This document shows positions 3,001 through 58,300 of a stretch of 64,000 nt of DNA, one piece after another. The first letter of the stretch is position 1. Each line of letters begins with the position of its first letter. Position numbers and translations under genes: made by a program. The stretch comes from Ophelia neglecta (lineage: Eukaryota), in assembly GCA_965285935.1 (NCBI GenBank), contig OZ260665.1:66278001-66342000 (forward strand). Reading direction: 5' to 3'. The notes under the pieces were generated by a model. That model searched no databases, was not told the origin of the DNA, and was given only the letters and a program-made list of their open reading frames with translations.

Positions 3001-4073
3001 ACGCCTACAATCCACAAGTGCGCAGTGTTATACTGATAGAACAGTCATTCTGTTCCGGGCAAATAAATAATTCACCTTAGCCTATAGTTGCGAAACCAGC
3101 TATTTTAAAGAGATGTTTGTGCGGGCACCAGGTAAAATATGTATTGTCTTGTGTTGTTCTAGAGGCTGTTCTGGTTTTGCCATCTGCTCTTTTTGTCAAC
3201 AGTAAGAAAAAAAAAGTTAATAACAGAGGTCCTGCTCTGAGAAAAGGCTTAAACCGTGTTAAATAAAGCGTATCCCTCATTTCAATCATTAGACATCTAG
3301 TAATGTGAATAGTTGACCTAATAGTTGATTATTATGAGCAGAAGTTAAGCCAGAACCAAACACGACGAGCTTGCGTACTGATGGACATGAGGTGGTCGGG
3401 ATGAAGTTTCAGGCAGTGACTTTTCCATTAAAAGCCCGTCTGGCTAGTTAATAGACTCTGTGACAATGATAGCTGGCAACCCCACTAATCCATTAACTAT
3501 GCAAAGAGAACTGGCCTGTCGATCTACAACACAGTGTCGTCTGCGATTCATATCCCCGCTACAGCCGCTCTGCGCTGGCATATAAGGTAGTTTACAGAGC
3601 ATCTGGTAACTCGCAGATTGAAAAGAAACTGTAATCCAACTAAAACATTATTGATTGATAGGGGGTGTAGGTCCCCATAGTGATTTTTCCTTCGAAATAT
3701 AGCACAAATTATTTACTTCATAGGAAGTTGGAGAAAAGGGGCCAATCGAAACCGGAAGTCAGATAGTGTTACCCAAAAACAATACCAAGTGGATGATACA
3801 GCCAATCGTCGACTTCTCACGTTTACTTAACAAATTTACACATCCCTTACCTGAACGCGTATGAAGATTACCTATTTTCATATGCGTTTTTGATCTGGTC
3901 GATTAAGCGTCATAAGAATTACTTTATGAGTAGAAAAGAAACCAAGCGGACGCTAATGTAATTTCAGTTCTCAAATCAATAGCCATAATAGCACCAGCGG
4001 AACCAACATTGTGTAGTTTGGTGCCGAAATGGCTGTAGGTTCCTGTCTTAGTATATCAAACAAACTTTGTATT

Positions 4074-4097
4074 CCCCCCCCCCCCCCCCCCCCCCCC
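4074..4097. repeat. Poly-C tract
   Basis: About 24 consecutive C. Confidence 0.9.
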
Positions 4098-7005: not shown

Positions 7006-7041
7006 CTCATCTCGTGGCTAATCTCATGGCTCATCTCCTGG
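7006..7041. repeat. 12-bp tandem repeat, 3 copies
   Basis: ctcatctcgtgg ctaatctcatgg ctcatctcctgg. Confidence 0.75.
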
Positions 7042-10000: not shown

Positions 10001-12705
10001 CGAGATGCGCTCTTTCCGACCGAAGTTACTACTAGGCAATTTATACATTGTTTAAATCGAAACATTCGACATGATGTCCGGCTGGTCATTATTCTAATAA
10101 GGGTAGGCTTACGGCCTTCGCCAGAATTCTGGGTAATTTGCCTCAGATTTCAATGTCGTCTGCCCGATTCGATCCGCAAAGCCTCAGTATCATTCGGTAT
10201 TCCGTCCCCTAATGATTTTCATTACTGCAAACTTAGATGGATCGACGAGATATTGGAAAATTTATAGCTTTCTCCCATCCGCGGTGTTAATTCATTTGCA
10301 GCAGCGCGACACCGGTAATCCCGCAAATCAAAAACCAAACTCTATCAAGCGAAGTTCTCATCGCCTAAACCTCAGACATGATTCGGTATTCAGCCTCCAC
10401 GACAACTTGGATTAATTCTTTCGAGATAGCAAATTGGAAAATTTGCCTAAATTACATCACGGCGGATTGAGCAGCCTGCCGATCGTGATTTCTGATAATA
10501 GAAATTGAATTTTAAGGGCTCTGACTCGAAATTTGTAAAATGGATGTCAGGCAGTGTCGACCTTTCTTTAGTGCTTCGATAACCCCGTTCCTTTATAAAT
10601 CGTTGTAGAAAGCAAAGACGACCACAGAGGTTTTACAGCTAGAGTCCTAGCTTATTATTAGTCTGATCAGTATGTATAAGTATACCGTGGTCTACAACTG
10701 GTATCTACTGAAATAGGCAGCCAAAAGGGATAAAAAACCTAGTTATAATTAAATCCTTCAATGTCGTTATTTCATATGGCATGTATAGGTGCGGGCCCTT
10801 CCCTCGTGTATTTAATTTATTTAATTCACAATACACAATACACATAACCTTAAACTGGCCATTAGGGATTATCAATAATGCATGTTCTCATCTTTTTGTG
10901 GTGAATTTCTTGAGAACTGATTTTTTTTAATGTGTTTTAGACAAATTAGGAATATCTTGTCATTGTGAACAGTGTGTTCCTCTCACCGGTTATCTCCTAA
11001 AAACACTTGAAAACACACCATTTTCCCATGATTTTGATTCTCCATTCTTGTTTGTAATCTTAGGAGACTTGACTGGGTGTGGCTCCTGTGTCCTGTCAAT
11101 TTCACGCATCGAAGATCCGGCGGGGGAGACAAAGCAGGCGGCATCTGCTTTGTAATTAAAAGACAATATCAGCGGCATCAGATTGTAATGGGACGTAAGT
11201 CTGCTCGGCAATACCGTCTGACTCGGAGAAACACTGATTTAATTAGTGTTTATCTCAATTAACAATCGCTACTTTTGATTCGACCGGCAATATTAATGAT
11301 ATTTTGCAGATTTTGTTATGAATCGAAGATCTTGTGTCACATGCTGGTCAAATTAGTGTCATTCTGATCAAGATTCCTGTCCATAGTAACGTCGCTGGCT
11401 TGCATACCACACCAACTACAGGAAATTCGAGAGCATATGCCGAATCTTGCCTTATGGCGCTCTCGGCGGAAAGAAAAAAGTCTATTTAAGCGGAAAACTG
11501 TCACTCAAAAGTAAGCAGTTAATTATAAAGACACAAAACAAGTGAAGGAGAGCAATTAAGTGGATCTTCAACGATAAATTATTCACCAATTTCTGATCTC
11601 CGATTGTGGCTTGTGGCAGCTGAGGGGGAGGACAAGCCAGTGACATCACGACACCTTGCCATGGCTATCAAAATATCATCATTAAGAAATATAGCGACTT
11701 ATTTGAGTACTTTGTATGCGATAGCATAATTAAATTACAATAAAAATGAAAGAAGGCAGTTATTAGAACGCAGATGAAAAGCTTGTTGGACAGTAAGGGT
11801 GTGTCCTAGCTCCAAGACGGATGACAAATTCCTCGGAGGCTACGGGTTATATCTAAGCATGAGTGTCCTGCACAATTAACTATTAATCCCTCATTAATCT
11901 TTAAACAAAAGCATCTAGATAGAAAGTTAAGTCCATCTAATCACCACTAAAATTTGAAACAATCTTTACAGGGGGTTTTGTTAGATTAGGCGTTACCATA
12001 TAAAGGAGGTTCGCACGTGCCTTGCTTGAGGTTTGGTTTGCCTGGGATCCTTTTTATAGTGTTAATTTTTGATCCTTTGCAGTTCAGATTAACATTCTAT
12101 ACTGTCCTTCTTTTATTTTATTTCTTGTGTGTATTGTTCTACCCACATCACCTAGTTTATAGTTCTAAACTCTCAGTGAAAAGAACTTATTTTTACATAT
12201 ACTAGATATTAACAAAAATAATATAGTTTTTTCAAATGCTCAAATAAGAATCTGTTTAAGAACTACACGTGCCTACCTCGTCATGAAAGCATGATTGTCT
12301 AGAATATAGAAGAATCATCTCCATTGCTTTGTTGATCCTAAATGCCTATTGATATTGAAAAATTAAATGAACGTTCAGATCAATAGTGCTACCACGCAAT
12401 AGAGTGGCAAGGCGAAAAGGGTCCTGCTATCATGTGGGCAAGCCAAGTTAACAACCTCTATATAGCATATTATAATGAAACACGATGTTTTGACTGTTTT
12501 TAAAAGTATTTCCTTGTCAATATTAATTCCTATTTTAACTTTCCGACACGGAATGCCTCCTGTCATTATGTTTCTGAAAGTAATGTATGTTTGTTGATTA
12601 ATAAGGTCAGCGTGCAGGAAAACGGTTGGATTTGGCAAATGTCGAGTTTAGTCTAATGCAAACTAACGTGTATAAACTTATTTTTCCTACAATATATTTG
12701 TATTC

Positions 12706-12719
12706 GTTGCCATGGAAAC
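12706..12719. promoter_or_regulatory. RFX X-box motif
   Basis: GTTGCCATGGAAAC matches the X-box near-palindrome GTTGCCATGGCAAC at 13 of 14 positions. Confidence 0.5.
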
Positions 12720-12981
12720 GGTTATTGAAATATGTTGCCCTTGAGATCTCATATAGGTCCACCAGCATCCTGGTTGACACTTCTCAATTGGTTTTAATTT
12801 CCCTCGTGTAACGAAGAATTTCAGCAAACATCACTAAGTCAGGTTCTCTTGACGTCTGCTGGCTTTTATTCTCATTTTATACTACAAAGGCATATGCCAG
12901 GGCCTTTGAAACAAGAGGGGTATATGTTGTATGACATTGGCTTTTAGTAATAGGAACGCATCTCAAACAACACCAGAGCCA

Positions 12982-15900: not shown

Positions 15901-18900
15901 CCAGGGGAGAGACTATACACCGTAATTTTCACCAATCACCTACACTAAATGATAATGAGCTTAGTCATCTTCATCATTCGAGAACATTAAAGGGGCACAG
16001 CAGCATGTCCCTTGTAAAAACGCTCATCCTCTCCATTGTATTCAACATAGAAAAGCTTGTTACTTAGCAACTTGAAGGAGAAATCAATCTCCTAAGACAT
16101 ACTGACAAGTTACAGATATTTCTGGAATCCATGACACATTATATTCTCCCAAACGCCTTGAAAGTCACCCAAGGAGACGGCGTTCTCCGCAACGAAAATT
16201 GGATTAGGAAGCGTTCGCGATAAGAGAAGAAATACGAAATGATATGACAGATGCCGGATGGGCGATATTGGAGGAGGATTGTCTCTAGGACTCTCTAATA
16301 GGTATCGGCCTGACAGTGTCAGTGATTGAGGGGGTATGTTCCAAGAAACCAAAGGGGGCTACTCCACAAATCCAAGTGGAGGTCCCTTAAAGCTACTGAA
16401 TATTGCCAGTTTGCAGTTAGTGATTTTTGCCAGTTCAATTGATGTTGACAGAGTTGTGCACCACTTGTATGGTATTGGTTGTTTGTGTTTTTATCCCTCA
16501 CAATTCTAGTTTGGTTATTCATTAATTGAATTCATGCTATAAAAAAACGCCACATGCTCTAACCAACAACAATATTTTCGTGACATAACCTTGTTTAACG
16601 TATTTCGACAGGAGTTTATGTTTCTTCATTTTTGGTTTACTAAGTATTTACCAGAAAGTCTCCTAACCTTTTTCCTTTTCTTACATGTTTATAGACTTTA
16701 ACCAAGGCGCGTGGTTAAGGTTTTCAATTTGATCTTCGTCAGGGTCTATATCATGGTGTACTATGTACACATCTTGATGTCATCTTTAATGCATCAAGTT
16801 TCTAAATCATCGCCAAAAGTATATTCAAATGCTTGGATACGCTACTATTTCATATCCGGCATATGTGGCCTATTATCATAGAATTTTGGTTTTAGTCTGT
16901 CCTTCCTGCGGCCCTCCGTATTATCCGTTTATAGCTTACCCCCTTGCCATAGGAGCTCAGATTGCCATCAGAACCATCCGCCATCTTCTACAACAGGCAA
17001 ATTAATGGGTGCATGATTGATTTCACTCGTGTCATTTTATGCCACCATTCGCCAAACATATTGGCCGAACGACCCTGATTTCTCAATGGGATCGGAAAAT
17101 AATATGAAATAATGACAAATCTCAAAAGAACATCATAATAGATTACGCCTCTTGCACTGGCAAATCATCTCCGTCTGCCTGCAAGTCTGACACGTCGCCG
17201 GATTCTGAGGCCCTTATCTTCCTCCGGGTAATTTAAAAGCATAATGTCTTAGGATGAGGAACCTGGTAAAATCTTAATTCAATCTTCGATGTATTTTGTC
17301 TTATCACTGTTCAATTACTGTATCTGCGACAGTCGAGTTTCTAGGCGACAGTGCTCATCTCGTGTCATCCGAGAACCTCGTTTGGCTGATGAGAGTTGAG
17401 CAGACGTGCGATGCTGCTCAGGGATAATGTTATAGCAACCCTCCCCTTCCGCTGGTATTTGGTACAGTTTGAAATGCCGTCTGCCATGTTTAATTCTTCT
17501 TCTTTCCACATTCACCGCAATTTAAACGATTATTCCAACATTAAACCCAAGTTTAACTTTTCATTACGCTGTTGTCGTTTGTTTGGTCGAGAAAGTACTA
17601 GGTAATAAATTGTGTAATGACTAACTATTCTATGCCTTAATCTGAACACGGCCATTATATCGCTTAATTAGAGCTTCAATACATCGGATGGACTTTTCAC
17701 TGCCATGGAGAGTCAGTGTCCTCAAGCTTATTAGGCCCTATATCTTTACGTGTGCTCAGTACAACCTGGGGGACGGTACCAACCTTTCGATGCTTGACGG
17801 CAGCCGACACGAGATCCAAACTAAGGAATAATGAATAAGACTTTATGTCTACTTTATACCGGGATATCTACTACACGTGATTAATCACTCCCCTGTGATA
17901 ATTATCTAACGGTGAATACCATGACTGATTCTGCGATTCAATTTGAGTGAATTTAGGCCAGTCTCCCGGGATGCTTTACGCGCTGAAGGCTTCCGGTCGC
18001 GTCGTTGATACTAATCTTGCGACAGACGCTCAAAAGTAGGTAAAATATATAATTGATATTATTGCTGTTTAGGGAATGGAGAAGATTTGTTTCGCATTTT
18101 ACCTATGCAGTCGGTCTGAAAGGCATTAATTGAATTGAGTGATTTCTACGAGACCAGCTATAGGTTTGCTCCTCGTGTGAGGCCCCAGTCGGCGGTAAGT
18201 GAAGAGCACACGCTGCTCATGTTGGCTCTCGTCAACCTAAGAAGACTAAAAAAACCATTCAGTGTCTGTAAGCGTCTAGAAAACTATTGAATGTTTTGGC
18301 TATAACTAGACTTAATCCCGTTCATGTCAAAAAGCACTATGAAATGCCACCAGCCGGAACCACAAAATCCCATCTATTTTTAATGACTTTTGCAAAATTG
18401 CTAGGCATTGGTGTTAATGCATTGCGCCTCAGGGTAGGGTAGACTATACCTAGATCATTGTTTATTCAATATATGTAATTAATAGCCCCAGCTTTTGAAT
18501 AGCTTATTGTTTTATGCAAGTCCAACAACTTAACGTGAATTTAAATTCATTACCAGAACTGCTGGCACAAAGGTGTGACGTTAATTCTGCAAAGCGCCTT
18601 CTAGAGCTAAAACAGCACAGATGCATTCACTGAGCGTTTCTAAGAGTATGATTAACCAAGCGAACTCTTTAATTGTGGAGCCAATGTCGCCCGTGGCGGC
18701 CATTTCTCTCCCGAATACATTATTTCAAGGTTCCAATTATGAATGTATGAGAAGCAATGAGAACTGCCGCACATCCTCGATGTTGGTTGGCAAGTCTTCT
18801 GCCCCGCCGCCCGGCGGTGTCTGGAGAGCAGTATCTGCTCGGCTGAAGGCCTCCCACTGGTTAGGCTGAGTAACGGTAGAACAGACCCTGCAGGCTTTTC

Positions 18901-21900
18901 ACTCCACCAAGAAATTACCTATAATGAAAAGAAACCCATCAAAATTCATTCGAGAGCACAAAGAAGCGGTGGCTTTTCCTGCCCGCGAGACTTGGAAATG
19001 AATAGCATAGGTTTCTATTGCATCGCCGCTGATCATTAACAATAGCTGATTAACGCAGAAATTGAATTTTACCGAGAGAAAATTGAATTGGAATATTCAA
19101 CCATTCGGTAAACAGGGGCGAGGCGCATTTATCCATCCAGCGTGTAAGTAGAGGTGACAGCTTGAGTTAAATAATGAATAAAGTTGTTCCGGAGCGCAAT
19201 CACTGATTCAGACTGTCGTCTGCTTCTCAATGGCGTTATTTGAGCAAGTCCCCCGAGGTACAACTCAGATAGCTCATTCTCCGTCATCCAACCAAACGAC
19301 AGGCCATCGAACGCCCTCTGCCTTCTACTTGTAATTTTTAATTAAGCAATAGACAAGTATGTATAGATCAAATAGCTATCAGCTGATCAAAGCTTTTTGA
19401 TTCACAAAATATTTTTGAGGGACTTTCTGGCAATATAAAACGTGTGCCTACTGCAATTTTTTTAATGTTATTTTCATTCTTCGTGTACACTATGCCTACA
19501 TTTACTTCCCTAAGCATGTTGGATTGGACCTAATTCGTACGCGTGTAAAATTTATTTTTACCTTTTTATATAGATGTACTGAAGACCGAACTGAAGTGCA
19601 CATGCCGGAAGGTGGCACAATCTGCGTCCATTGTTTTAAGTTGCCGACAACACCATAAAGACGTTTAAAGCCGGCCATATGGCCAGTCACATTCAGCCCA
19701 TTAAACGGCAGTCCTTGTAATTCAGTTGGGTACATGCTGTTCCTATCAGCCTGGAACAAACAATAGCGGGGCAAATGGTTTTTCACCCCGACAGTAGTCA
19801 CTCCACACTCATCATTTACCAGCAAATGGACTTATATAAGGCTAAATGGGAACCTCGATCGCATAGCATTGCAATTGCCTCCGTGCTGTCTGCTGGTACC
19901 TGCCGTCAAGGGTCTGACTGTAAAAACAGCCTGAAAAACGACCTCACGACGTGCTCCCTTTATTCTTATTCAATTCTGATGTCCACCAAAATAACTTTCG
20001 TTCTATATAGCCATGCAAATGTGAAACAATTTCCCTGGTCGCCTAACCCTCGACTAATGAACATCGCGCTTCCATGTCTCACGACAAATCCTCAACCAGA
20101 TTATTTTTATGCGCGCCGAAATTCCTTGCTATTTCACTTTTGATTTCCCGGCTTATGCCTAAAATGCGGACAAATAAATTGACATAGAAGCGGGATTACT
20201 GGGCGATAAATTTTGTCTGCTATCTTCGGTCAGGTCTGAGCCATCGCTCTGATGGATTTCCCATTTTCCGTTCTGTGATTAAGCGCCTTGAATTATTGAA
20301 TAGTTTTCAATAAATTGATGCCGGGGCTCGCGATGTCGTTACATGGAGAGCGATCGTGTGATGTCCCCAATATTAGAAGGTAATTATTTGTACCCCTCCG
20401 GCAGATGAGGTGGGGGATCCCCCGGGAGACGGCTCGCATCTTCCTCCTGCTTATAAATGACTTCATTGCGAGCGGGACTCAGTTACAAATGAAAAACTTT
20501 GACAAGCCCGTAGTTATCGGACATATCAATTTGTTGCCTGTTAGAGGCTAAATCAGCGCTTTACATTAACCACTCGACTCCGTTGAATTCCACTAACAAA
20601 ACGAAATGCTCGGCATGCAAAAGGCATATACTTTCTGGAGAGCGGATTTAGTTTGTAATGAATGATGGGTACCGGGAGTAGGAAGCTAAATGTCGTCTGT
20701 CGTAGGTAACGTGACCCAATAGGCTATATTGCATGGCAGCTGTGTAATCCGTGAGCGTAGTTAATCCGAGTGGATATTGGCCTATCTGGAAATAAGCCTA
20801 AAAACGTGTTATTTTGATTTGGCATTTGTAGGAACTCGCTTTTCTTTGTAATGTTTGTTAAATTACCAGTTGCCTATACATACTCAGAAAGAATTTAAAA
20901 ACTTGATAATTTCTTTTATATCGGCTTTCTTTATGGGTTTGGTTCAAGAACAATAACTTAACCTGATGAATAAAACTTATATATACATGTATATATGTAC
21001 TTATTTGGACTTAACGTTTTTCTCTCTCAGATATGACATGCAGGAAGTAGCGGAGTCCCAGAATACTCCAACACCACGGCAACAGGCACCTGACTAAATG
21101 CAGTTAATGAATACTTACATATATATAAAACCCTGGCCAATTTTGTCATCATATGCCATACTCTAGAGCAATAGTCGAGTGGGGACAAACTTCAAATTAT
21201 AAAGGTTTACACTTTTAATATTGTGCCACGCTATAATTGGTCTATTAAACGTAACATACTACTATTATTTCAATGTACCTCATATACGAGATGTCCGTGG
21301 GGAACCAGTTCCTCGATCTTGATATCTATAGACATATTTGGAACAATTATTGTTAAGTCTAAGAAAGATTAAAGGCTTTTGCTTCAGCCTGTCACTGACT
21401 ACAAACTGCTTTGGAGTTACTAGGTTTAGCATTTGTGTTTGGTGGTTTACACAGTTGAGCAGCGGTCACTGCGGCAATCGGCATTACTGTGCAGCCAGAA
21501 TAATGTGAATGGGGCAAACGGTATATACCGTGTGCTGCTCTGAGGATTAAGAGCTCGGAACAGCACCCTTGTTTAAATGCTAACTAAATGAGTAACACAC
21601 GCTGTACAAAGTACATCTGTCACCAATTAAACAGGAACTATTTAACTCTACGGACATCATAGTTTTCGTGAAACAATCTTAGCTTAATTACCTTTAATTT
21701 TCAAATAACATTACCGTATTAGCGTAGACAACAACAAGGAATGTCGGCCACTAGCGATAAATACAAGGATGCCTTAATTTGCATGAAATTGCTATGTTAA
21801 GTTCTTGATTAAACTATAAACGTCTATTGTGGGACAATTAAAAATGAAATTAGGTATGTTTACTATTATCTGTGATATTTATGTTCGCTTATTCCGCTTG

Positions 21901-24233
21901 CAGCTGATCAACTATACTTTTATTTAGTCTTTCAGTTGATAACAACGAGCGCATGTTGACCCATATTACTTTCTGTGGAGCACTGCAAGAGCCGGGAGAG
22001 GCATAAATTTAAATTAAAACTCTTGATTGCGCATGCTCGATCTTACAAGAACGGTTGCGCGAACGTAAACGAGGCTAGGCGTGCTCACACTCGAAGTGAA
22101 TGGCTCACTTGGGTCGCTCCTGTCTCACACACTAATGGACCTGTTGCGTTATTGTTGTTCTGCAGTATAGTAGTTAGAATGTATGTTCATCACATTAAAA
22201 GTACGTGGGATTAAAAGGGTAAGATAGATTATCAGTCTGGTAACTTCGCGCATACGGAGATGCACCCACTACACGGAGCTACCCTTCATCATCGGATCTG
22301 ATAAAATTGTGTTTTAATTCTTGCTTTAATTATAGGCCTTTTCATTCATCCATGCATATTCTTTTGTATTTGCTGATATATATGTAAATATATTCGTGTC
22401 GTCAGCAGGCGTGTACAGTTGTTCTGGGTTTGGAAGCTTAATTTACTTTCCTGGCACCTTTTCAGTTGAAATCCAAACGGACAGCAAGCTAGACCTCATA
22501 AATAATTGTGAAGGAACTCTTAGTTTAACAATGGTTTTGATTATTTTTAATGATAAATAAATGCAGCTTGAAGGCGAAGATAGGATCTTCGAAATAAGCT
22601 TATAGATTATAAAATCTACTATCATTATGTTAGACCTACTGGCGTTTTTTCGTAGGTGTTCTCCTTAACATATTTTAAGAAATTTATGACAAACAAATTT
22701 ATAAATAGAATTCCACCAGGTTTAAAATGGTGCCCATCTTTCATGAAATTAAAGATTGGTCAATATTAAAACTTGGTCAATAACATATTTTGTTCATAAA
22801 GTAAAACTCTACAGTTATGTAGCGACGTTGGTTTTATGGCATAAGCCTGCTCATTATCCAATCCGCCATCATGAAAACGGCGGCCATCTTTAAAAATGGT
22901 AATGGTCGAGCAGCTTTTTGATGTACAAATTAAATGCCTATGCAAAAAGAATCATGGATTTGTGGACAATTCATTAACTGGATATAGTGTTATTATAAAG
23001 TTAAATTATTTTTCAGCTATGACCTTATTTGACATTTTAGGTGAAGTTTGAAATAATTAACCGTGTTAGCGATAACATCGTTTGTTTTCATTCTCCATTG
23101 TTAGGGTCAGGGAGGCCCAGGTTCGCGGGGACAAAGCGCGTTCAGGGCCTATTGTAAACATGTGTATGACATGTCTAAATACATGCTATTGACATGATTG
23201 TTGAGGCAGCAGAAACTGGTGTAGTCCCTACAAATCAGAGGTTGAATGCTTTGCGTAAAGAATGCTATTAGCTACTAACAGAACAATGCGAATGGCAAGA
23301 AAATTGTACGATGTACACAAATCTTAATGTATCTAATAGAATTGTTGTACTAGATCGCCTGATAAATATGTCGCCCACTTGTATCTACATTTCTATCGGG
23401 CATTTAAAACTATGGTAATGTAAACATATATTGATGGGGGAACAGGGGTTGCATAAACACAGATGCCTACGAGGTTACCCCAAGTCAGCCTCGTGTTGTC
23501 AATGTTGTCTATTGAAGAGGGTGTATTAAAGATGGGTCTCTTTTTTATTGTTCGCTGAGACTGCGTAAGACAGTTTTTAATGTTTAATGTCAAAAGACTA
23601 TTGAATGAACACTCTCAATGGTACAAATGGTGTTTGTTATATTGGAGAACCATTATCAACCTTAGCTGGCTATATTATTATAAAACAGGCACAAAATGTA
23701 CAATGTATGTACAATAAACGCGCAATTGTTCCGAAGGGTGCGCTTATAGATAAAATATAAGTTGGTATCCAATCAGTGTATAGCACTGTACCATTTACTA
23801 ATTAATGGTTAACTAGTTGCTAAAAAACATTCCGTTCGCATTATATTCTACTCAATTACTAGACATTCACGATGGTATCGACCCGCTTCTCTACTAAGTA
23901 AATTCGGTAGTATTTCGGTATTCAAGCAGGCTGCTCGTGTACAGGTTTTGAACGTTACTGTACATTTGCACCCCTGTATGTTTTATGTTCAGTGTACACT
24001 ATATAGATCTGTATATGTATTATAGAATACCCGAATATCCGAATGTGAGTAGTGATTTAAAAGGATCAAAACGCACGTAATGTAATCCATTGAAGGATAT
24101 TTCGTATATCGTTTGGTCTGATTGGGGTCATACCGGGTGTCATAGCCCTGGTTAAATATGTTATAAACATTGTGTTCTATGACACTGTGTTTAAAATTAC
24201 ATATATATGACATTGTGTTTAAAGTTCGATATA

Positions 24234-24436
24234 TTTATTTTTAAATGAATATTTATATATTAAGAATGTTGCTTTTGCCAATAATATACAATCCCAGAAA
24301 ATTAATCACACTATATACAGTTGAAAAAGAATCTTTATTTATAATCAGTTTTTTTGCAGGATAACCAGTTCTCTTAAACTCAAACAGCTTATTTGAAAAA
24401 AAAAATATTAAAAAAAAAGTAGGCCTTCTATTTATT
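24234..24436 (-). terminator. Candidate polyadenylation signals (AATAAA on minus strand) in the AU-rich Uncx 3' UTR
   Basis: tttatt on the plus strand at 24431, 24334 and 24234, downstream of the stop codon. Which signal is used cannot be told from sequence. Confidence 0.4.
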
Positions 24437-24463
24437 TATAGCGTCCGAAGTTGTCCTTCAAAC

Positions 24464-25492
24464 TTAACGACTATAATTATAAGGGGCATTGTCTAGTTTG
24501 TTTAGTTTATTTTGAACACCATTTCCGGCTTTTTTACTATCTCCCATTTTGGCGACAATTGTCTCATCACATTTTGGAAGTTGCTCCAATAGGCCTATGT
24601 CAGCACCGCCACGTCGCGTCGAGTCCAACGTTGGACTCACACTGTCAATATTTGCAGACGTACAAGGCGGAATTGACGTCACTGATCTATGTTGCACACG
24701 CGTATTGTTAGTTACCATGCTCTGCGCATGCTCATCACCTCTGGTGACATCCGGGCTGCCTGTAGGTGGCGTTCTCGGTGGTGTTGGTAGTCTTTCTACC
24801 TGAAACCCCATAGGCTGGGTGATCGGAAACAACGGCATCATTCCCAAGGAGAAAGGACTCATGCTTTTGCTCGCCTGAACACGTGGATATTTGGAGTTAG
24901 GCCGCCTGCCGCGCGGCACTTTTGGCGCCTCCAGTAGACTGTCAATACTGAAGGGACTTTTGGTGGTATTGTTTGGCATCGGGTTTGGGGGCAACCGCTG
25001 TTCATCACTGGGTTGCGGCGTTCCTCCGTCGTCGTCTTGATTTTGTGTTGGTCCATCGCTCTCTGGTTTTTGAGTTGGTCTTGAGTGATTTTCTGTCCTC
25101 GAGTTTTGTTTGGCTATAGAAGAAGACTCCGTGTCGCTCTGCCCACCGCCGCCGCATAGGGAGGAGGTTCCTGAGGAGAGAGATATGTCGGAACCCTCGC
25201 CGACCACGTCAATCTCGTCCCCTTCCTCGCCGCTGGAGAGGTCATCTCCTCCCAGCTCACTCCCTTCGCCGGCCTCGTCCGTCCCTTTGCGTTTGGCCTC
25301 GAGCTTCCGCAAGCGGTCTTCCTGCTTGCGGCGTTTCTTTTCGAGACGCTCTCTCTCGCGACGCTCGAGTTCCTCTTTAGGGATTGGTTCTCCCGAGCAA
25401 GTTTGCGGGTGGGCATTGTGGGCAGGACGACCTGGACCCTTCTTCGTGTTCTCCTTCTTACGCCATTTAGCTCGACGGTTCTGGAACCACAC
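24464..25492 (-). CDS. Uncx: Uncx coding exon 3: helix 3 (VWFQNRRAKWRKKE), Uncx-specific KKGPGRPAHNAHPQTCSGEPI extension, charged coiled-coil, acidic region, eh1 FSIDSLL and C-terminus
   Basis: Lies in ORF 24464..25504(-). Acceptor tgtactttcag|GTGTGG at 25492 (phase 0). Q50 paired-class helix 3 is followed by the diagnostic Uncx/unc-4 post-homeodomain motif. Stop codon at 24464-24466. Confidence 0.97.
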   Translation of the reverse strand: MWFQNRRAKWRKKENTKKGPGRPAHNAHPQTCSGEPIPKEELERRERERLEKKRRKQEDRLRKLEAKRKGTDEAGEGSELGGDDLSSGEEGDEIDVVGEGSDISLSSGTSSLCGGGGQSDTESSSIAKQNSRTENHSRPTQKPESDGPTQNQDDDGGTPQPSDEQRLPPNPMPNNTTKSPFSIDSLLEAPKVPRGRRPNSKYPRVQASKSMSPFSLGMMPLFPITQPMGFQVERLPTPPRTPPTGSPDVTRGDEHAQSMVTNNTRVQHRSVTSIPPCTSANIDSVSPTLDSTRRGGADIGLLEQLPKCDETIVAKMGDSKKAGNGVQNKLNKLDNAPYNYSR

Positions 25493-36361: not shown

Positions 36362-36564
36362 CTGTACTCTGGACTCGACGAGGTCGAGTTTGAGGGCCAG
36401 AGCCTCCCTCATGAAGACGTCCGGGTAGTGGCTGTCGTTGAAGGCCCGATCTAGCTCCTCTAACTGCCATCCCGTGAAGTTGGTCCTCGTCCGTCGCCGT
36501 TTGGCCGAGTTACCGTCTTTGCCATCCTCAGAATCCTCGCCGAAGTCGGTGTGATACAGGTTGT
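36362..36564 (-). CDS. Uncx: Uncx coding exon 2: homeodomain residues 1-46 ([47 protein letters not shown])
   Basis: Translated by hand on the minus strand; the ORF track shows only another frame here. Acceptor tctcttttcatttaag|AC, donor GTACAG|gtacgc, length 203 nt (2 nt plus 67 codons). The sequence is nearly identical to the Uncx/UNC-4 homeodomain. Confidence 0.96.
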
Positions 36565-38029
36565 CTTAAATGAAAAGAGAATATAGATAATTACACGTAT
36601 CAGGTAACGCCTCATGCTTCCTGTATAGGAAGCAAGGGATTGTGGGGTTTTCTTTTCAAGATATGAAAGTTCACTATATTATTTATATGTATGTACTGAA
36701 GTTACCTCTTGAAACGACATAGGCCTAACATGCACCTATATAGGTATACTGTACATGCATATTAAGCCGTAATTATGTAGTTATATAGACCTATACAGCA
36801 GCCCGAAATAGGCCTAGGCCTATGGGCTTATAAAAAATGCTCATGTACGCTTTGTTTATGTTTATAGAAGGCGTTTAAGTCAGCGAGTTCTTTCACGTGC
36901 CTTCTGTATATCAGCGGAAAAACCCAGCCTCAGAATTGTAGATGATGCTATAGGTCTGTAAGTATATATGACATATTGTCACATCAATCAGCGAGAAAAC
37001 AAAGGGCAATCATAACGGTCAACTTACGTAGGCACACGTTATTAGGAACGGTGCCAGCGGCTTGTGGGTCAGCACAAACATATTCATCAGCCACAAAACT
37101 GTTGGTGGTAGGTTGGTATGGGGGGGGGGGGGGGGGCTCAGAAATTTTGTCCTAACTCCTTTGCAATCTGTTCATTGTCACATATATCATTGAAATTGTC
37201 ATATTATATGACGGGGATGTATCAACATATGGATGGAAGATATATGCATCGTATAAACACTGCAAATTTGGACACTTGTAAGCACTGTATTATTGTGAAA
37301 CTAATATGAGGAACCATCATTAAAAGAATATAAATATGACATTAGAAAATATGAACATTAATGTCAATATTATACGTGCTTGTAATATAGACCTATATTT
37401 GTGGCAAATGAAACTATGTTTTGCCGATAGGTAGAGCTTATGCGGTCAGTTGTCTGGAGGTTATTTCATGATAACGGCGTGTTATAGTTCAACATGTGAC
37501 CAGGTCTACATGCACTGTCCTTCTGGCACCACAGGCCTTTTTTCTCGTACAGTTCGTACACTCGTATACCGTGGTAGGCGACTGATTCGCAACAAATCAT
37601 AAACAAAGGTTCATAGAGGTCAAGGACATAAGTATATAGACAATGAACGACACTAATATCGTCCATTAGTTTAATTAATGTCATTAGACGCCCTTGGTTC
37701 AATTATGACACAGAGCCATGAGTGAAGGGTGCTCGCTCAAGTTATGCTTGTCATAATACTACAGCTTTATATTTCTTCCCAAGTAAGGTAAATATTCTAG
37801 TGTGTTCACCCTAAGCCGTGCATACAAAACGAAAAAGAATGGATGGTCATTTTATTAAAAGCGCGGGGTATGTACTTGCATAAGAAATTGTCAATGAAAA
37901 GTCAAGAGTCAAGTGAGCTATAATCGCGCCCTTTAAATGGCCGTGCTATGGGGTGATGTCGGTAAGGGCTGGGGTCAGAGTGGTAAATGGGGGCGAGCCC
38001 CCGCGTCTGAACAGGCAGGGAAACCAAGC

Positions 38030-41642: not shown

Positions 41643-41973
41643 CAGATTTGGCCGAGGAGACATGTGAGCTGTTGCTATTGTTGAGGGCTGATGAGATGTT
41701 GGTCGTTGAGGAAGGGCTTGAGTGACGAGCTAGTAGGCCCTCGATAGCAAAATGTCCATGACCAGTCATCTGCCCTCCCCCGGACACGGCTATCTCCAGT
41801 CCCCGGGGATGAGCTCCCCCGGGGTACTCAGGGTAGGGGAACACACTGCCAGCCTGGGACGTGGGTATTCCGAGCGCTGTGAACGGGGGACTGTAGTGCG
41901 AAAATGTCGCCGGCAAACCGTTCATTCCGTTGAATCCGTGCGGAAAATGGCTTTCCAAAAGTCTAGCATCCAT
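41643..41973 (-). CDS. Uncx: Uncx/unc-4 homeobox gene, coding exon 1 (N-terminus MDARLLESHFPH..., eh1 motif FAIEGLL); an in-frame upstream ATG pair at 42015/42012 could add up to 14 aa
   Basis: Lies in ORF 41578..42015(-). MDARLLE resembles the vertebrate Uncx start (MMDGRLLE). It ends at a canonical donor TCTG|gtaagt (exon end 41643, phase 1). G plus AC from exon 2 gives GAC (Asp), in frame with the homeodomain. Confidence 0.85.
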
Positions 41974-42360: not shown

Positions 42361-43885
42361 AACACAAACCGCTTGCATTCTGTTCGCTTCAAGAGTAACT
42401 TTTTCCAGCAGTTTCTCAATTTTCCCACTAGTGTCATTTTTATTGTATTATTTGGCTTTAGCGGACATCACAATGCCGCTCGAGGCCGCTCCTGCTTGCT
42501 CAGGATTGAAAGGCATCGACTATTCTTTTGACAATGCTTTAACAGCATAGATCGAAGATGGTAACAAAAACACAGTGATTAGACGAACATTACTAACAAC
42601 AACACTGATTTCACCCCCGCCTGACTAGGTGGGGTGCTCTTGTCTTGTGACAAGTTTTCCAATAGTTTGAAAGTGTTTCTTTTCAAAGTGAGATCGGGCA
42701 ATGAATGCCACTGGCCCTGCCGTCCAACTTAAATTCTTTTGTTGTCATAACTCTGGCCAAACAATTTACTGACAGCACTGTTATAGACCAAATAGATTTA
42801 TGTCTGCTCACGCGAGGCGATTGACAGCAAACCGAAGATGCCAAAGGCGAGAACAAAACGACGGCATATCCTACACTGTAACTGACTATTCAGTAATAGA
42901 TTTCATCCATATTAATCAACCATTGAATTGTCGTCTTCCAACACTGAAAAATATCACCTTAGACCATCAATGAATCATTCAGTGTGCAAATCCCACCCCA
43001 TGCCTCCACTTGATGGCCCTCTAGTAATATAAAATGAATTTTACTACTGTTTGATCAGTTTGCCACCCGCAGACGATTCAAATTGTGTATGTCGTAAAAG
43101 GTAAATGTCTGCCTGAAATGAAGAAGTTACGTGTTTTTAGATAACAGACGACAATATGCTGTAACCGATGATAACACACAAACCAAGCTCTCTGAAGTTG
43201 GCACAATTATAGAATAAATCTCAAAGAACTGTTTCTACAAGCGTGCTTTACATCCACTGAGTCTGAAAAGGTAACTATCGTTTTATTGTCACGTTATGTA
43301 TTTGGTATTGGATTCTAATGGTCGTTATTTGATTTGAGGATCTAGTTTAGGCATATAACAAAAGAATAAACTGTGCGTTTCGTTTTTTGACGCTGAAACA
43401 AGGGTTACCTATTAAACGACTTGACACGTGTTTATCATAATGAAGTGTGGCATGTAATGTCACGGGCAGAGCAAACGTCCGCTTAACATTCCTAGCATTG
43501 AACACTTTTCAGGTTTAGAGACATCCATTTTATATTAAAGTCATATATTGAATGATCTGAACAGCGCCGCCTAGATAGCTGATTGTGCTTGAACGATACT
43601 TGTTGAATGGAAATATGCTTTTTTAGTACTAAACTGCACGAAGATGAAATTTTGTTCTTGAAAAAGTTGCTGGGAACTGTTTCAAATGATGTGTCCCTCC
43701 TTTTACCCAATACATGTAGTTTAATATAGAGTCTATCTATAGCCCTCGGCCTATATAAAATCCATCTATGTATAGGCCTGCATATCAGTGAAAATCACAC
43801 TATAGTATTTTAATGTTTGAAACATCAATATAAAGTGTTGGAAATTGAAGGTTATAATAGTTTATAATTATTTTGAGCTTACATA

Positions 43886-47000: not shown

Positions 47001-49672
47001 CGGCGAAACTTGGATTGAGGCACTGGAAATTGTTTAAGTGAAATTGACAAAGGGCCCAACATCTAAAAATGTAAATATTTAAAACAGTAGAATAAAGGTG
47101 AAGAAAAGCTACTAACACTTTTATAAGTCAATAGAGCAACCAAAGGCTCTGGGCATGTATGGAAAAACTAACCATGTATACACATTGTCTGCATGCTTGA
47201 GCCAAGGTCTACAAATGGGTGTCCTGTATGAAACTGGCCTGTTGTTATGACAGTTTCTCAGAGGCTCTGACCTTGAATATAGATTTAATACGCAGTTTTA
47301 TCTTTATAAGGGACTATGGGAATCAAGGAATACTAAATAGCCACCACATAATTAAATCTATAGCGCCGGACACCGCAGACACGGAATTGTTTTTATGAGC
47401 AAGATGTCTGACACAGACAATGCATATTAATTTTCCTTGTAAACGTTTCTTCTCTTGCTCATAACAACCATTATTATTTGGGCGAGTCGTCCAACTTGCA
47501 AGAGAGTTGATCTAAGTCATGTTAGCAGTCTACGACCAAATCTATAGATAGTAGGGCTATAGACCCAAAGCTTGGAAGATCTACCAGATTCTTTATTTTC
47601 CACGAGGAATCATGTCTTGTTTAGCTTAACTGACTGATACTATCCATTTAAATTATTTGCATACTTTGTTGTTGTCGTATATAGGCCTGTCGTATATTAT
47701 ATATATATAAATCTGCGTCCATGGAGCTCCTGCCAATATATATAGGTATACTTTCTGCTTGCAGACGACAGTCATGTAAATTGTTAAACAGGTTGGTCTG
47801 TGTTCGCGTGTCCCAGCTTTAAGTAATCCCACTTTCCTTCATCTTGCCCTAACTAACTCTGTCAGCTCGGAATTGGATCTTTCTATAGTCGAAACAAGCT
47901 TAATAGAAAACTCTCACTTATCCTGCTGTATCTGTGATGGGCAAGAGAATGTCAGAGAAAACAGCCTTGTCGCCTTCGTGATTTCTCTCACCTTGTAGGT
48001 GCTAGGGAGCCCCAAGAGAGTCCAGCTTCGTAGGCTGATAATTATCTTTAAGCAACGCCATTACATGAAGTAATGAGCTCGGAAAACCTGCAACAAAAGG
48101 CCAGACTCTTCTGCAATTGCGTCATCGCCAATGGTTATTACTAAAGGATGAACTCGCCAGCACTTTTCAAAAGGCAACTACGCAGTTCAATTTAGTGTCA
48201 TCTTGTTTTCACAAAACAATGCCACCAGCTTTAATACCAGGTTACCGCATGTTGACACGCCTCCCAAAACATAGCTTAAGCCTTTAATTCAATTTAAATT
48301 TGATTTGATAAACTGTTTGAGCATTCCCAATGACAGACTAGAAATTGCATCCTATTGTCAACGGGTTTGTTTAAACGAGTGCATGAATTCTGTAACATTA
48401 AGTAAACTGACTTCTCCGCGAGAACTATCTATTGACCACAGGGTAAGGAGGCGTGGATAATTTTTCTAAAACAACAAACTACAAACTAGCTATGGGTCAA
48501 ATCAAACATATCATCACGTCTTAGGTAAAGTTGCAGCATTCAGTCAGCACGCACAGAGGCGTCCGGTTTCAAATCTAATGATACTCCCTTAATGGCCGTC
48601 TTGGGAATTGATAAAGTTGAAAACTCAATGAAACGCATTCCTTTCAGTTACCAGTTAAAATTGGATGTTTTTACCCCATGTGTTTCCTAATGGTGACTAG
48701 CTCCCGTGCAGAATCATTAGACTTATTTGTTACTCTTGGCAGACGACATTTGCAAGAGAAATTACATCTACAAAGTTGTAATATATAGCCATCTCATATA
48801 GTTCTTCTAAGGTTATATCTACCTCATATCCGAATATAACGATATATCGGTTTTCTGGGACCATTCAGATCGTTACAGAGGGTGGTTAACCACTCAGAAT
48901 TAATTTTTGCCATGCCCTGATCATTATAAATCGTTCTTAGGCAAATACATTTTATGTATGAAAAATGTACCGTGAGAACCGAGCACCTGTGCACGACGTC
49001 CTCCTTTCTGATCGATACAACAATTAATAATACCCGCGAAGGACAGATCATTCCTTATTGAATGCCTGCCAATAAGGATCAGTGACAAGAGTAATGGTGG
49101 CGGCGGTCGGCGTCATGCCAAAGGGACACCACCTGTAGGGCGGGCACATTTTTTCCAGAGATCCAGACGAAACACGACGGGCTCATAATTGAATTAGATC
49201 ACCTTCGGTCCCAGCTACACACAAAAAACTTTTTTATGCTTTATGATTTTACCATCTGCTTTGAAAAAGTGACAAGCAAGTTACAGATCGATGATCGCAG
49301 GTGATTGACATTCATAACCAATGAAGCATTGGCAGGAAACTGTTGCTGGTGGGCCTAGGCCTAGAAGTGAAATCAATACGGCGTTACTACCCCGTAAGAT
49401 TTGCCGACACGCAGGTGATACCTGTACGTTGAAAACATTACAAGAAATTGATTGATTCAATAAAATAGCGCTGATTACATGGCGTAGCACATGTTTACAT
49501 GTCAGCTTGGCTGCCAACAATGGGTCTGGGACAACGCGAAATTGCTAGGTTTTTTTCTATGAATACAAATAGCATCATAATTCATACCGTTTAAGATAGT
49601 GTATCTGATAGTTATACTGTAAATAAACTTTGCAAATTGTTGGACTACGGCTGAATATAACAGCCTTTAGGA

Positions 49673-49724
49673 GGGGGGTGGGGGGTGGGAGGGGAGGCGG
49701 AAGCCCGGGAGTATGAGGTAATCT

Positions 49725-49755
<31 letters not shown>

Positions 49756-49756
49756 G
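49673..49756 (+). repeat. G-run cluster followed by (TG)n and poly-G
   Basis: GGGGGG-T-GGGGGG-T-GGG-A-GGGG at 49673-49694, then (TG)n and a long G run at 49725-49756. Confidence 0.85.
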
Positions 49757-50721: not shown

Positions 50722-50892
50722 TACATAGAGGTTTCTGCAATGTAGGACCACCACTAAATCCAAGAAAAAAGTGGTCTTACATTGTAGGTGGCCCTTCATT
50801 GGAGGTACTTTAACATAAAATAGATAGGACATGGGAATTCAAAAACTGTACTGCCGTCATCCGAGGGGCCCTACATCGCAGGGACCACTGTA
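50722..50892. mobile_element. Possible degenerate Tc1/mariner-pogo-type MITE remnant
   Basis: The right end reads ...gcagggaccACTG|TA (CAGT-type terminus plus TA target site), with internal ggaccac/gtggtc inverted motifs. The left terminus is eroded and its coordinate is approximate. Confidence 0.35.
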
Positions 50893-51204
50893 AATATGAT
50901 ACATGGTTTAGGATCTTGCCAATCTGGCCCTTTCTGTGATGCATTACATGTGTTTAGCTCAAAATGTTGCACACGCGTATATTATATGTTTCGGTATGGT
51001 TTAATTGATACGGCAAAAGTATTAAAGTCTTGATTATGCGCATTGGCAAAGGTAGCATTAAAAAAAGGTTATTACATCTGGGAAGGTTGAGGGTTATTGA
51101 AGGTAAATTCTATCGTTCTCAATGAATTTCTATTCTCGTAAACATCCCAGAGTATGGGTCAGCTGGATTTGTCTGAGCTTTCTTTCCTGGGATGACGTTG
51201 AGAG

Positions 51205-52328
51205 TGTTGCGACCACCAACAGAGGGTCTAACGTCTCCTTCCTAGTGACTAAACCAGTCCTTCCGAGAGACTAAACCGGGCCTGTGACCATGGTCGGGGG
51301 GTATAAGGTCTTCCTTTGGAGGCTCCCAAACCAGGGCTGTCACCATGACCTGAGGGTCTTAGTTCTCCCGTCGAGTTCCAAAAACCAGGCCTGCGACCAT
51401 GATCAGGGGTCTAAGGTCTCCCGCGGAGGCTCTCAAACCAGGGCTGTCCCCACGACCGGAGGGTATTGAGGTCTCTTTTAGAGAGACCCAAACCAGGACT
51501 GTCCCCACGACCGGAGGGCCTTGAGGTCTCTTTTTGAGGGACCCAAACCAGGGCTGTCACCACGACCGGAGGGCCTTGAGGTCTCTTTTAGAGAGACCCA
51601 AACCAGGGCTGTCCCCACGACCGGAGGGCCTTGAGGTCTCTTTTAGAGAGACCCAAACCAGGGCTGTCCCCACGACCGGAGGGCCTTGAGGTCTCTTTTA
51701 GAGAGACCCAAACCAGGGCTGTCCCCACGACCGGAGGGCCTTGAGGTCTCTTTTAGAGAGACCCAAACCAGGGCTGTCCCCACGACCGGAGGGCCTTGAG
51801 GTCTCTTTTAGAGGGACCCAAACCAGGGCTGTCCCCACGACCGGAGGGCCTTGAGGTCTCTTTTAGAGAGACCCAAACCAGGGCTGTCCCCACGACCGGA
51901 GGGCCTTGAGGTCTCTTTTAGAGGGACCCAAACCAGGGCTGTCACCACGACCGGAGGGCCTTGAGGTCTCTTTTAGAGAGACCCAAACCAGGGCTGTCAC
52001 CACGACCGGAGGGCCTTGAGGTCTCTTTTAGAGAGACCCAAACCAGGGCTGTCCCCACGACCGGAGGGCATTGAGGTCTCTTTTAGAGGGACCCAAACCA
52101 GGGCTGTCCCCACGACCGGAGGGCCTTGAGGTCTCTTTTAGAGGGACCCAAACCAGGGCTGTCTCCACGACCGGAGGGCCTTGAGGTCTCTTTTAGAGAG
52201 ACCCAAACCAGGGCTGTCCCCACGACCGGAGGGCCTTGAGGTCTCTTTTAGAGAGACCCAAACCAGGGCTGTCACCACGACCGGAGGCCCTTGAGGTCTC
52301 TTTTAGAGAGACCCAAACCAGGTTGTCA
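51205..52328. repeat. 55-bp minisatellite, about 20 copies (15 near-perfect units at 51481-52305, degenerate units on the left, a partial unit on the right)
   Basis: Unit GAGAGACCCAAACCAGGGCTGTCCCCACGACCGGAGGGCCTTGAGGTCTCTTTTA recurs at exact 55-bp spacing (51481, 51536, 51591 ... 52251, partial at 52306). Confidence 0.97.
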
Positions 52329-55300: not shown

Positions 55301-58300
55301 AAAGCAAAGTGAATTTTATAGGTTATCTGTTTGCGGTGAGAAGATTATAGTATACAGTGGTGGTTAGTGTTTAGAGAAGCTGTTAAGGCCACTCGTGCAA
55401 GTGGACCGCCACATTCTCTGTGGTCAGAGGTGAGAAATTTGTCGCCATCTTCTCGCGCTGAATTCGCTTTTATAGCTAACGAAACTCCCCGTTCGTCCCC
55501 TTGTTATCCAAGTATTGTTAGACCCCCAGGATGAAACGCCAACACCGACTTTCTCCTCTTTGAATCCGCCACTCATTTCCATGTAGACAAAACCAGAGGC
55601 CGGCCCCTGCACTAGATGGAGACCAAACCTGTATGATTTATACCGACAAACAGAGGTTCGCTTAACAAAGGGGCTGGCCAATATTCATGAGCTTAGGAAG
55701 TCTGCGGTCGGGGTTACTGAGAATAAAACTAGTCAAAACCTGGGCTCGGTGTCGGTGAAATGTTCCTGCAAATGTAAATGATACTTAGGTGTGGAAAAGT
55801 ATTATCAGAGTAACTTGACATGTATGGGGCCTCTATCTTTTCGGACAACTTTTGTCGACAAGCCCGTGAGGAATATGTAGCGAGGACTGATATAGGAGCT
55901 CACAGGGCAGGCCAGAAACAGACAGTATTTTCTCCTTCTTTATATACACTACACTGAGTGTACATTGATTAGAAACAACATATTGAAAATTTTCAGTCGC
56001 ATTATCACTATTTACTTGTATTTTGAATACAACTTCGTACCATCAAAATCCCCACAACACTTGATAGCTGTAATAATGCTTGTCTATATTAAAAAGTAAC
56101 CTCCCCCCCTCTGACATATGAATGTGTTTTGGATAAAATATAAAACATGTTTTTCACAATGTGACAGTATAAATTCGATTTATTTGCTACACGGACGGTA
56201 ACTCAATAATTAATCAAAATTGATGAATTTTTCCATTAACAATATTTAAGCAACTTGTATGACGAATTAATTTCCAAATTATCAACTCATTACAGATGAG
56301 TGTTAGAAGATTCCGTGTTAGTATATATATAAATATGTATATAAATGATTTTTTTACAAAGAAACACGCGAATATACAACCTCGTGTTAAACAGTATCAT
56401 AATCATAAAATTATTAAGTTAGAAACGAAAAAATTGCCGAGATATTCTTTCGAACAGAAGATAAAACGAAAAGAGGAAACATGTACCGAGAAGTTTGTTA
56501 AGATGCCTGATTAGGCATAAACACGTTAATGAACCAAGAGTGAAAAAGAGAATGGCTCCCATGCATGCGTGATTGATAAAACAGAAGTTTGTAAGAACGG
56601 ATCGGGCTCTATTTTTAATTTGTGCAAACACGGTCAATGAACAATAGCCACCCTCAAATCACAGTAAATAATAACCTTACAATTATTCTTTTTATAATAA
56701 TCATCAGCCTACCTGAGTGCTGTGTTATTCGTCTTTGATGTAATACAAGTCAGAGTGTGCGTGTATATCAGTTCAAGATAGCCGGTATGTCGCCATGACA
56801 GACGACACCCTGACAGCGAATATTAACTGATGCACATCTTAGTACTCACCGTTTATTGGAAGGTATTATGGGTGACCAAAAAGACAAATTATAAGTCAGG
56901 TGGCAACTATCTATTTTAATAGATGGTGGATCGAAATCGCAGTGTGGTCTTCGATCAATTCATTAATGCTGTCATAATCAAACTTTACATAAATTTTACA
57001 TCGATATCGTTGTACGTTACGTGACTTGAAATACTTAGAACACTCATATATTCAAAAGGCATATCCTAAAGACAATAACCTCCTTGACACCCCTGTGCTT
57101 TTATAGGTTATAACAGTATTGTTATTTTCATTTGTTTCTAAAATAATAAGTGGCGTTCTTTATGGTTCCGTTCGTGTATGCCGGTAGCCCCTGCGAGGTG
57201 AGTTGAACACGGTATCTTGTCCTGCCGCCCTCGTCACGGTCCGCTTGGTGACTGATCGTCTGCCTGCGGATATATTACCCCGCTTGATATCCCCCCATTC
57301 AGCTGGCTGCTCAATCTAAAGGGGTAATTGATGGGGGTTGTGATACTTTGTTAAGCACTATGTAACGTTCCATTACGGCAGGGGCGAAGTGAAAGGAGAT
57401 AGATTTCAGTTAACAACCGGCATGGGATGGCGGACATTTTTGTAAATTAAGACGGAATTTTAAGCGTGACGGCCTCGCTAATGAAATTTGTCAACTTTGC
57501 TAAGGAGGTTGTCTACTCGGAGAAGGTGTATTCGGCGGCGCGTGACGAGAGGTCTGTCATGAAGACAGGTGAAGTGCTCGACTGTAAAATACTTATTCAG
57601 GAAAGCGAGGTTGTCAATTCGCGCCGTCTTTCTCACGACGATCTTGTATTGAAAATCCACCATTAGGCCTTTACTCTTTTCACTTTCGCCTTGCAAGCCA
57701 AATGAAGCAATCAGGCAGACAGAATATTGCAATACACGAGGTGTGCTAAGTTGGAGGAGAATACATAGAGGAAAAACAATTTTCTTTTCTTCATAGGCCG
57801 AGCAAAAATGATGGATTGTGGTACGTGTCAAACGGTACACTAACCAACCTCTTTAGCATTCAATTGACATAAAATTCCACAAGTAAAATGTCGTAAAATT
57901 CAATTTCGTTTCCCCCACGTCGGTTTATTTTCGTCTGAACGGTAACAAAGCACGGAGAGTGAAGATGAAAGATTTGGAGCCCATTTAAATAACTCCTTGT
58001 ACATAACTTTTGAACTGGATAGTGTCATCCAAACTTGAGTTTGCATTTTACAAGTTGCCATAAAGCCCATAACCCTTTGCTCCTCTTTGGTGGCCAAGCC
58101 GGGACCACCCCTCAATAACAAAATCAGACTTTAGTGTCCCATTATTGGGCTTTGTTCTTAATTTTATTGGCCAATCTATTAGACACCTCCTCCTACCAGC
58201 CTGCCTGTCTTAATGTTTTTTCGATGACACTAACGCGATGCAGTAAAGTCATGAGATCTGGACCAATCGTCCAAGCTAAATCTTATCTCCTTATCGACAT

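Follow-up and report, generated by a model that had tools for sequence, protein, structure and literature searches.

Among regulatory DNA words of animals, those of EOR-1 in Caenorhabditis elegans and of GAGA factor in Drosophila are described as single words that recur in the distal control regions of many regulated genes and form homotypic clusters there (PMC5741055). Here we describe a motif of similar distribution, GCAGACGACA, in the annelid Ophelia neglecta. It came to attention as the 9-mer CAGACGACA in a stretch of 64,000 nucleotides (assembly GCA_965285935.1, contig OZ260665.1, positions 66,278,001 to 66,342,000 of the forward strand; hereafter the window), which harbours an Uncx/unc-4 homeobox gene. 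Zelda, a general accessibility factor of Drosophila, also resembles the motif at the level of distribution. The words of EOR-1, GAGA factor and Zelda differ from the motif in sequence; only in distribution are they alike. Regulated genes of Ophelia carry an excess of the motif in non-coding DNA that is unique and CpG-retaining, with the highest density at the genes of developmental transcription factors. Judging from the sequence, the motif is likely the recognition site of one DNA-binding protein conserved among annelids, which would act as a general enhancer factor.

The closest described sequence is from Dimorphilus gyrociliatus. The de novo motifs that HOMER returned for 10,241 peaks obtained from adults of this species by ATAC-seq (a sequencing assay of chromatin accessible to transposase) include TGTCGTCTGCTA, TCGTCTGCTA and TCGTCTGC, all three under number 10 of 25 (sheet Supp Data 5 of supplement file 4; PMC7854359). 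All three read as the Ophelia word and its favoured 5’ flank in reverse complement. The reverse complement of Dimorphilus motif 10, TAGCAGACGACA, holds the exact 9-mer together with the 5’ A/G-G that is preferred in Ophelia, and the same list also contains the palindrome TAGGCCTA, which is co-enriched in Ophelia (PMC7854359). Motif 10 serves there as a column name in the peak table, and we found no protein, discussion or link to a gene class given for it in the text; it may be shown as a logo in Fig. 5e (PMC7854359). That the word is enriched at developmental loci and scarce at housekeeping genes is shown for Ophelia, not in the Dimorphilus table. The kind of motif is ordinary and the word, already present in a supplementary table (PMC7854359), may be annotated elsewhere; what is new here is that distant genomes share it and that it is concentrated at developmental loci. 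A text search, which did not extend to figure logos, found only unrelated papers among those listed and none that discusses GCAGACGACA or names its protein. The word was also absent from the compared supplement files of PMC9977687 (its motif tables lying outside the comparison), PMC12862220, PMC12460157 and PMC11618098.

Over-representation of the motif at the Uncx locus

The Uncx/unc-4 gene is located on the minus strand of the window, and its three coding exons form an open frame of 520 residues. A second Uncx paralogue lies tail-to-tail with it just left of the window (C8:66267577-66273604, on the same contig), the pair being about 29 kb apart. A sequence-only reading of the window had reported 13 exact copies of CAGACGACA and some near-variants, while it missed both this gene pair and the equal or stronger over-representation of the palindrome TAGGCCTA. 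We recovered all 13 copies at every coordinate claimed, six on the plus and seven on the minus strand, and the near-variants at most 1-2 bases from the positions given. Intron 2 contains five copies, the DNA between the Uncx genes four and the upstream region another four, and none of the 13 falls inside the three Uncx coding exons, in line with their earlier description as non-coding. The sites are:

3535-3543, minus strand: copy of CAGACGACA with the full GCAGACGACAC, between the two Uncx paralogues
10154-10162, minus strand: copy of CAGACGACA, GGCAGACGACAT, intergenic
19214-19222, minus strand: copy of CAGACGACA, AGCAGACGACAG with the Dimorphilus-type 5’ flank, intergenic
20691-20699, minus strand: copy of CAGACGACA, 3.8 kb beyond the Uncx stop codon
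27503-27511, minus strand: copy of CAGACGACA, Uncx intron 2
28834-28842, plus strand: copy of CAGACGACA, Uncx intron 2
30959-30967, plus strand: copy of CAGACGACA, Uncx intron 2
32228-32246, minus strand: head-to-tail doublet of CAGACGACA, 10 bases apart (32228-32236 and 32238-32246), Uncx intron 2
43145-43153, plus strand: copy of CAGACGACA, upstream of Uncx at 1.2 kb from its predicted start codon, with the variant GCAGACGAT at 43070
47762-47770, plus strand: copy of CAGACGACA, TGCAGACGACAG, upstream of Uncx
48740-48748, plus strand: copy of CAGACGACA, GGCAGACGACAT, upstream of Uncx
56799-56807, plus strand: copy of CAGACGACA, upstream of Uncx
2825-46321: six more sites with one mismatch to GCAGACGACA outside the core, at 2825 (plus strand) and at 4132, 12850, 15065, 17475 and 46313 (all minus strand)

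The number of copies is far above expectation. About 0.3 copies had been estimated from the base composition, and 100 dinucleotide shuffles of the window gave a mean of 0.28 and a maximum of 2, none reaching 13. Markov models derived from the window predicted 0.25-0.61 copies at orders 0-3, 1.2 at order 4, 2.9 at order 5, 6.5 at order 6 and 10.1 at order 7, the last two values being inflated by the CAGACGACA copies themselves. Once simple repeats and the TAGGCCTA family are set aside, CAGACGACA is the top 9-mer of the window. The genome rate amounts to 1.2 copies in 64 kb, which the window surpasses 11-fold (p = 6e-10), and the whole genome (762 Mb) contains 14,315 copies of the word versus 7,713 of its reversed form. 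What did not hold in the window is the proposed location in GC-elevated patches: the GC content within 100 bases of the 13 copies is 0.415 versus 0.404 at random places (p = 0.27). When 80 sites, in the window and at further loci, are taken together, the rise is modest (0.42-0.46 versus 0.40), with 0.40-0.44 around words of the same composition.

Structure of the motif

A matrix was built from regulated loci comprising 860 kb. The consensus is RGCAGACGACAY; the motif is longer than the 9-mer and not confined to the Uncx locus. Its CAGACG core is fixed, with substitutions at or near background and the A at place 4 being the least strict, and its last three places are tolerant, with changes found at 2-6 times background. 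G is located directly 5’ of 56 of the 89 copies. At 21 of 80 sites a second CAGACGA is present within 150 bases (6.3 expected), and no fixed spacing was detected between neighbouring sites. As had been stated for the window, the flanks are unrelated, similarity among the copies stopping 2 bases on either side. A short graded matrix with unrelated flanks is what transcription-factor motifs generally show.

In the window the left-hand copies tend to the minus and the right-hand copies to the plus strand, a pattern that is not general across loci: at the Hox loci 26 sites are on the plus and 20 on the minus strand (p = 0.46); relative to the gene, 50 sites point with it and 37 against it (p = 0.20). 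This bears on the idea of an architectural protein that would tether loops or domain borders at developmental loci. In Capitella, a motif without a database match is reported at 57.6% of the borders of topologically associating domains (TADs) and at 68.8% of the loop anchors, mostly in intronic and intergenic DNA (bioRxiv 10.64898/2026.05.18.725834), and the Ophelia motif, which could be its counterpart, is likewise intronic or intergenic and dense at Hox and other homeobox loci. However, the Capitella motif is termed species-specific in that preprint, while the Ophelia motif is listed for Dimorphilus (the two were compared by description, not by logo), and the Ophelia sites are scattered through domains every 5-10 kb. 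An insulator was one of the three roles offered by the sequence-only reading, and for an oriented one of the CTCF type these counts, which show no strand bias, give no support. All in all, we give the architectural explanation a small chance. A pioneer-like role, which had also been offered, or a general enhancer function would be compatible with the distribution of the motif.

Distribution across gene classes

For a comparison between gene classes, 10-kb stretches were picked by class before counting, and 40 fixed round-number positions served as controls. The Hox cluster stretches contain 25 copies of CAGACGACA (present in 13 of 20) and stretches at other homeobox genes 23 copies (14 of 20), while only 8 copies were counted in the controls (6 of 40). 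The word is thus about 6-fold denser near homeobox genes than in control DNA (48 copies in 40 homeobox stretches, p = 5.6e-7), and the difference persists when the homeobox stretches are compared with the 22 CpG-rich controls, which hold 6 copies (p = 1.3e-4). These 400 kb of homeobox DNA were held out from the discovery of the word, and the over-representation was replicated in them with 48 copies versus 5.0 expected by an order-4 Markov model. Fox gene stretches contain 13 copies (8 of 20), stretches at genes for G protein-coupled receptors (GPCRs) 15 copies (10 of 20) and stretches at proteasome and CCT genes 3 copies (3 of 20), with none in the 20 most CpG-rich kilobases of the latter. Per 10 kb of CpG-rich DNA, this corresponds to 1.45 copies at Hox, 1.21 at other homeobox, 0.86 at Fox, 0.80 at GPCR, 0.36 at control and 0.17 at housekeeping stretches; CpG-poor DNA holds 5 copies in 481 kb.

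The 11-mer GCAGACGACAC has 1,703 copies in the genome versus 501 of its reversed form, and on contig C1, 16 of the first 100 sites listed have a homeobox at a distance of at most 50 kb (1.8 expected). By eye, 100 of 129 doublet matches were collapsed into 55 loci, of which eight are within the same distance (1.0 expected). Exclusivity for developmental regulators is weakened by the GPCR loci. Two motif clusters that were picked blind lie at a bZIP gene with repeat-rich DNA and at a gene for an ANF-receptor-domain protein, and a third turned out to be a tandem array (58 of 325 candidate frames were scanned). The bZIP gene, which is Fos/ATF3-like in look, has 7 copies of CAGACGACA in 10 kb (C1:24760001-24770000), one of them in an open frame, and opens a motif-rich and repeat-rich region of 220 kb.

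A preference for developmental genes could also reflect Polycomb recruitment, by analogy to the motifs of fly Polycomb response elements. The density per CpG-rich 10 kb, with its peak at Hox and homeobox loci and its minimum at housekeeping genes, speaks for such a function, and so does the clustering of perfect sites, among the first 100 listed on C1, at homeobox genes but not GPCRs. Nevertheless, the motif is very dense at the Fos-like bZIP gene and common at GPCR genes, YY1/Pho words are not co-enriched with it, and in Dimorphilus the word came from open chromatin (PMC7854359). In our opinion Polycomb recruitment is unlikely.

The palindrome TAGGCCTA is a second widely shared motif. It has 16-17 sites in the window, from 1376 to 60522, and 88 per 400 kb at homeobox loci versus 19 in controls. 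Transcription-factor loci are favoured by it over GPCR loci more specifically (p = 0.002), and it is also enriched in the pooled closest metagenome loci.

Repeats and CpG retention

A word that is frequent across a genome may be a by-product, either left behind by repeat families or retained together with other CpGs in unmethylated DNA. Repeat-borne copies of the motif do exist elsewhere in the genome, namely in an array at C1:3.51-3.53 Mb and in minisatellites, and CAGACGACA is almost restricted to CpG-retaining DNA. Repeated flanks, however, were detected at none of the 13 window sites and at none of 46 homeobox sites, in a comparison that covered 1.97 Mb (0.26% of the genome) and was sensitive to abundant repeats only. 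A genome-wide search with window positions 17001-37000 found repeats only apart from the copies of the word in this part, which are seven of the 13 in the window. Unrelated flanks together with repeats that lie away from the copies represent the anatomy of a protein-binding site rather than that of a transposon remnant. Furthermore, the homeobox enrichment survives against CpG-rich controls, the reversed word, although equal in composition, does not rise above background, and CAGACGACA is also found in ATAC-seq peaks of the distant annelid Dimorphilus (PMC7854359). The by-product explanation is thus largely refuted, and we see next to no chance that it is right.

An origin by CpG decay was also rejected, the TG and CA forms being at background in regulated loci (7 versus 10.2 and 10 versus 12.5, respectively). 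Genome-wide the TG-form 11-mer occurs 781 times versus 117 for its control, and five of six sampled places are in other repeat families. Between homeobox genes at C1:147569140-147581136 there are two minisatellite arrays with a motif-bearing unit of about 38 bases, and it may be that tandem amplification is a source of site clusters.

Smad and YY1 as candidate proteins

Since CAGACGACA includes AGAC and an overlapping GACGAC, it could be an extended Smad site, in which AGAC overlaps a GACG/GRCGNC variant and which would be read by the Smads of the BMP or activin pathways, alone or with a partner. The motif shares these parts with the Smad binding element (GTCT/AGAC) and the Mad-type GRCGNC, and both GACG and GRCGNC are reported as Smad-bound variants (PMC4605309). 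The genome has four genes with an MH1 domain, and at the three loci in which the hairpin region could be located, it has the expected sequence. On the other hand, the motif is unlike the Smad element in its invariant CG and its preferred ACA extension, and an expansion of the Smads was not found, the MH1 genes being four only. In 864 kb of regulated loci, ordinary Smad words occur at background frequency (CAGACA 646 versus 605, CCAGACA 130 versus 127, GTCTAGAC 12 versus 16, GGCGCC 198 versus 175), and CAGACG alone is doubled, with 467 versus 227.

A GC-rich Smad site and a Smad binding element are typically spaced by 5 bases. The corresponding composite GRCGNC-N5-GTCT was counted 3 times at homeobox loci and 2 times in controls, and GTCT at the 5-base spacing is present beside none of 131 CAGACGAC sites. 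The doubt about a plain Smad site voiced in the sequence-only reading is borne out by these counts, and we consider the extended site unlikely as well; if it were true, it would imply a DNA preference beyond the Smad words considered here.

YY1 was rejected in two versions. A YY1 variant site is not in agreement with the sequence, because CAGACGACA has no CCAT core and YY1 and intermediate words are at background. YY1 with altered fingers is not in agreement with the protein, fingers 3-4 matching those of the human structure 1UBD without a difference over the aligned fingers; for fingers 1-2 the best YY1 match has an E value of 1.5e-42. The YY1/Pho word AAGATGGCG bears a loose likeness to CAGACGACA, and both are in the Dimorphilus list as separate motifs (PMC7854359). 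For annelids, the YY1/Pho motif with its CCAT core is reported at TAD borders (bioRxiv 10.64898/2026.05.18.725834). An EOR-1-type word (2 versus 2.5) and a ZBED1 word were at background, and those readings were dropped; a HINFP-like word is only mildly raised (37 versus 21).

A general enhancer factor as the proposed reader

Directly established are how often the word occurs, its matrix, its distribution over gene classes, its clustering and its match to an ATAC-seq motif already published. The claim of the sequence-only reading that the 9-mer is the site of a sequence-specific protein is well supported by the held-out loci, the graded matrix, the homotypic clustering, the Dimorphilus ATAC-seq word and the fact that no repeat origin was detected, and binding of RGCAGACGACAY by some protein is very probable. 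In the favoured model, a single annelid-conserved factor would span the whole 10-12 bases, a size that would suit a C2H2 protein with three to four fingers, if we may guess, and its binding would help to open or mark enhancers. It would act at the enhancers of many tissues, like Zelda or GAGA factor in the fly, and not below one signal. From the CpG ratios we infer that the motif-bearing DNA is unmethylated, and methylation of the invariant CpG may block binding. Such a block is plausible, because methylation-sensitive motifs are known from unmethylated regions of annelid genomes (PMC11292947). It is tempting to go further and to regard GCAGACGACA as the target of a pioneer factor of spiralians, undescribed so far, which licenses Hox and other developmental enhancers and is silenced by methylation of the central CpG; we put this forward tentatively, as a possibility and not as the expected outcome.

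Several results weigh against the proposed enhancer factor. Five of 15 systematically sampled genome-wide perfect sites sit in repeats, which also counts in favour of the by-product explanation. GPCR and transcription-factor stretches are alike in 9-mer frequency (p = 0.18), while the 11-mer shows no excess around the 11 GPCRs listed for C1 (2 of the first 100 sites listed, 2.35 expected); as the two words disagree at GPCRs, any gene-class preference of the motif is tentative. Among 80 homeobox-bearing contigs of other animals, only 2 copies of CAGACGACA were found in 356,843 bases, and the closest Uncx matches among them contain none. These contigs are metagenomic, without assignment to phyla, and many are short, exon-rich or redundant; taken as they are, the 2 copies mean that conservation is patchy. 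Finally, none of the 40 listed allele differences (of 44) hits the five copies in 26501-35500, a comparison without power, as about 0.2 hits are expected in the one individual.

The identification of the motif is important for several reasons. Regulatory genomics of annelids and molluscs relies on vertebrate and fly motif libraries, and abundant motifs without a match are discarded. The motif is among the strongest non-repeat words at the Hox and developmental loci of the Ophelia genome, and it recurs in the open chromatin of a distant annelid. GCAGACGACA could serve as bait for finding a general spiralian enhancer factor, and also as a simple sequence marker of enhancers in genomes for which chromatin data are lacking.

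The Uncx locus and its surroundings

The coding exons of the Uncx gene in the window are:

41643-41973, minus strand: predicted first coding exon of Uncx, with an inferred start codon; a further upstream exon is possible
36362-36564, minus strand: coding exon 2 of Uncx, first part of the paired-class homeodomain
24464-25492, minus strand: coding exon 3 of Uncx, end of the homeodomain and Uncx-specific tail

Among named relatives the highest ranks go to unc-4 proteins of annelids, nemerteans, a brachiopod and molluscs. In a tree built from 31 exon-3 rows the phylum was not resolved. At the DNA level the two paralogues are 94% identical in the homeobox part of exon 2 and about 73% in exon 3; gene conversion or strong constraint may account for this contrast.

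The left 100 kb next to the window contain 2 copies of CAGACGACA and are CpG-poor from 30-80 kb away, and the right flank is a tandem array without any copy. This array is about 90 kb long, uniform and CpG-rich (C8:66352001-66442000), starts 10 kb right of the window, contains 174-base sub-repeats and holds none of the counted motifs. A comparison with Rfam gave no match. On C1, eleven homeoboxes are located on one strand within 550 kb (C1:60527353-61080003), which is compatible with an intact Hox cluster. Within the window itself, a 160-base hairpin repeat resembling a miniature inverted-repeat transposable element (32401-32561) lies 155 bases from the doublet site and has dispersed relatives genome-wide, and a minisatellite at 51434-52322 comprises 16 copies of a 55-base unit that are 97% identical.

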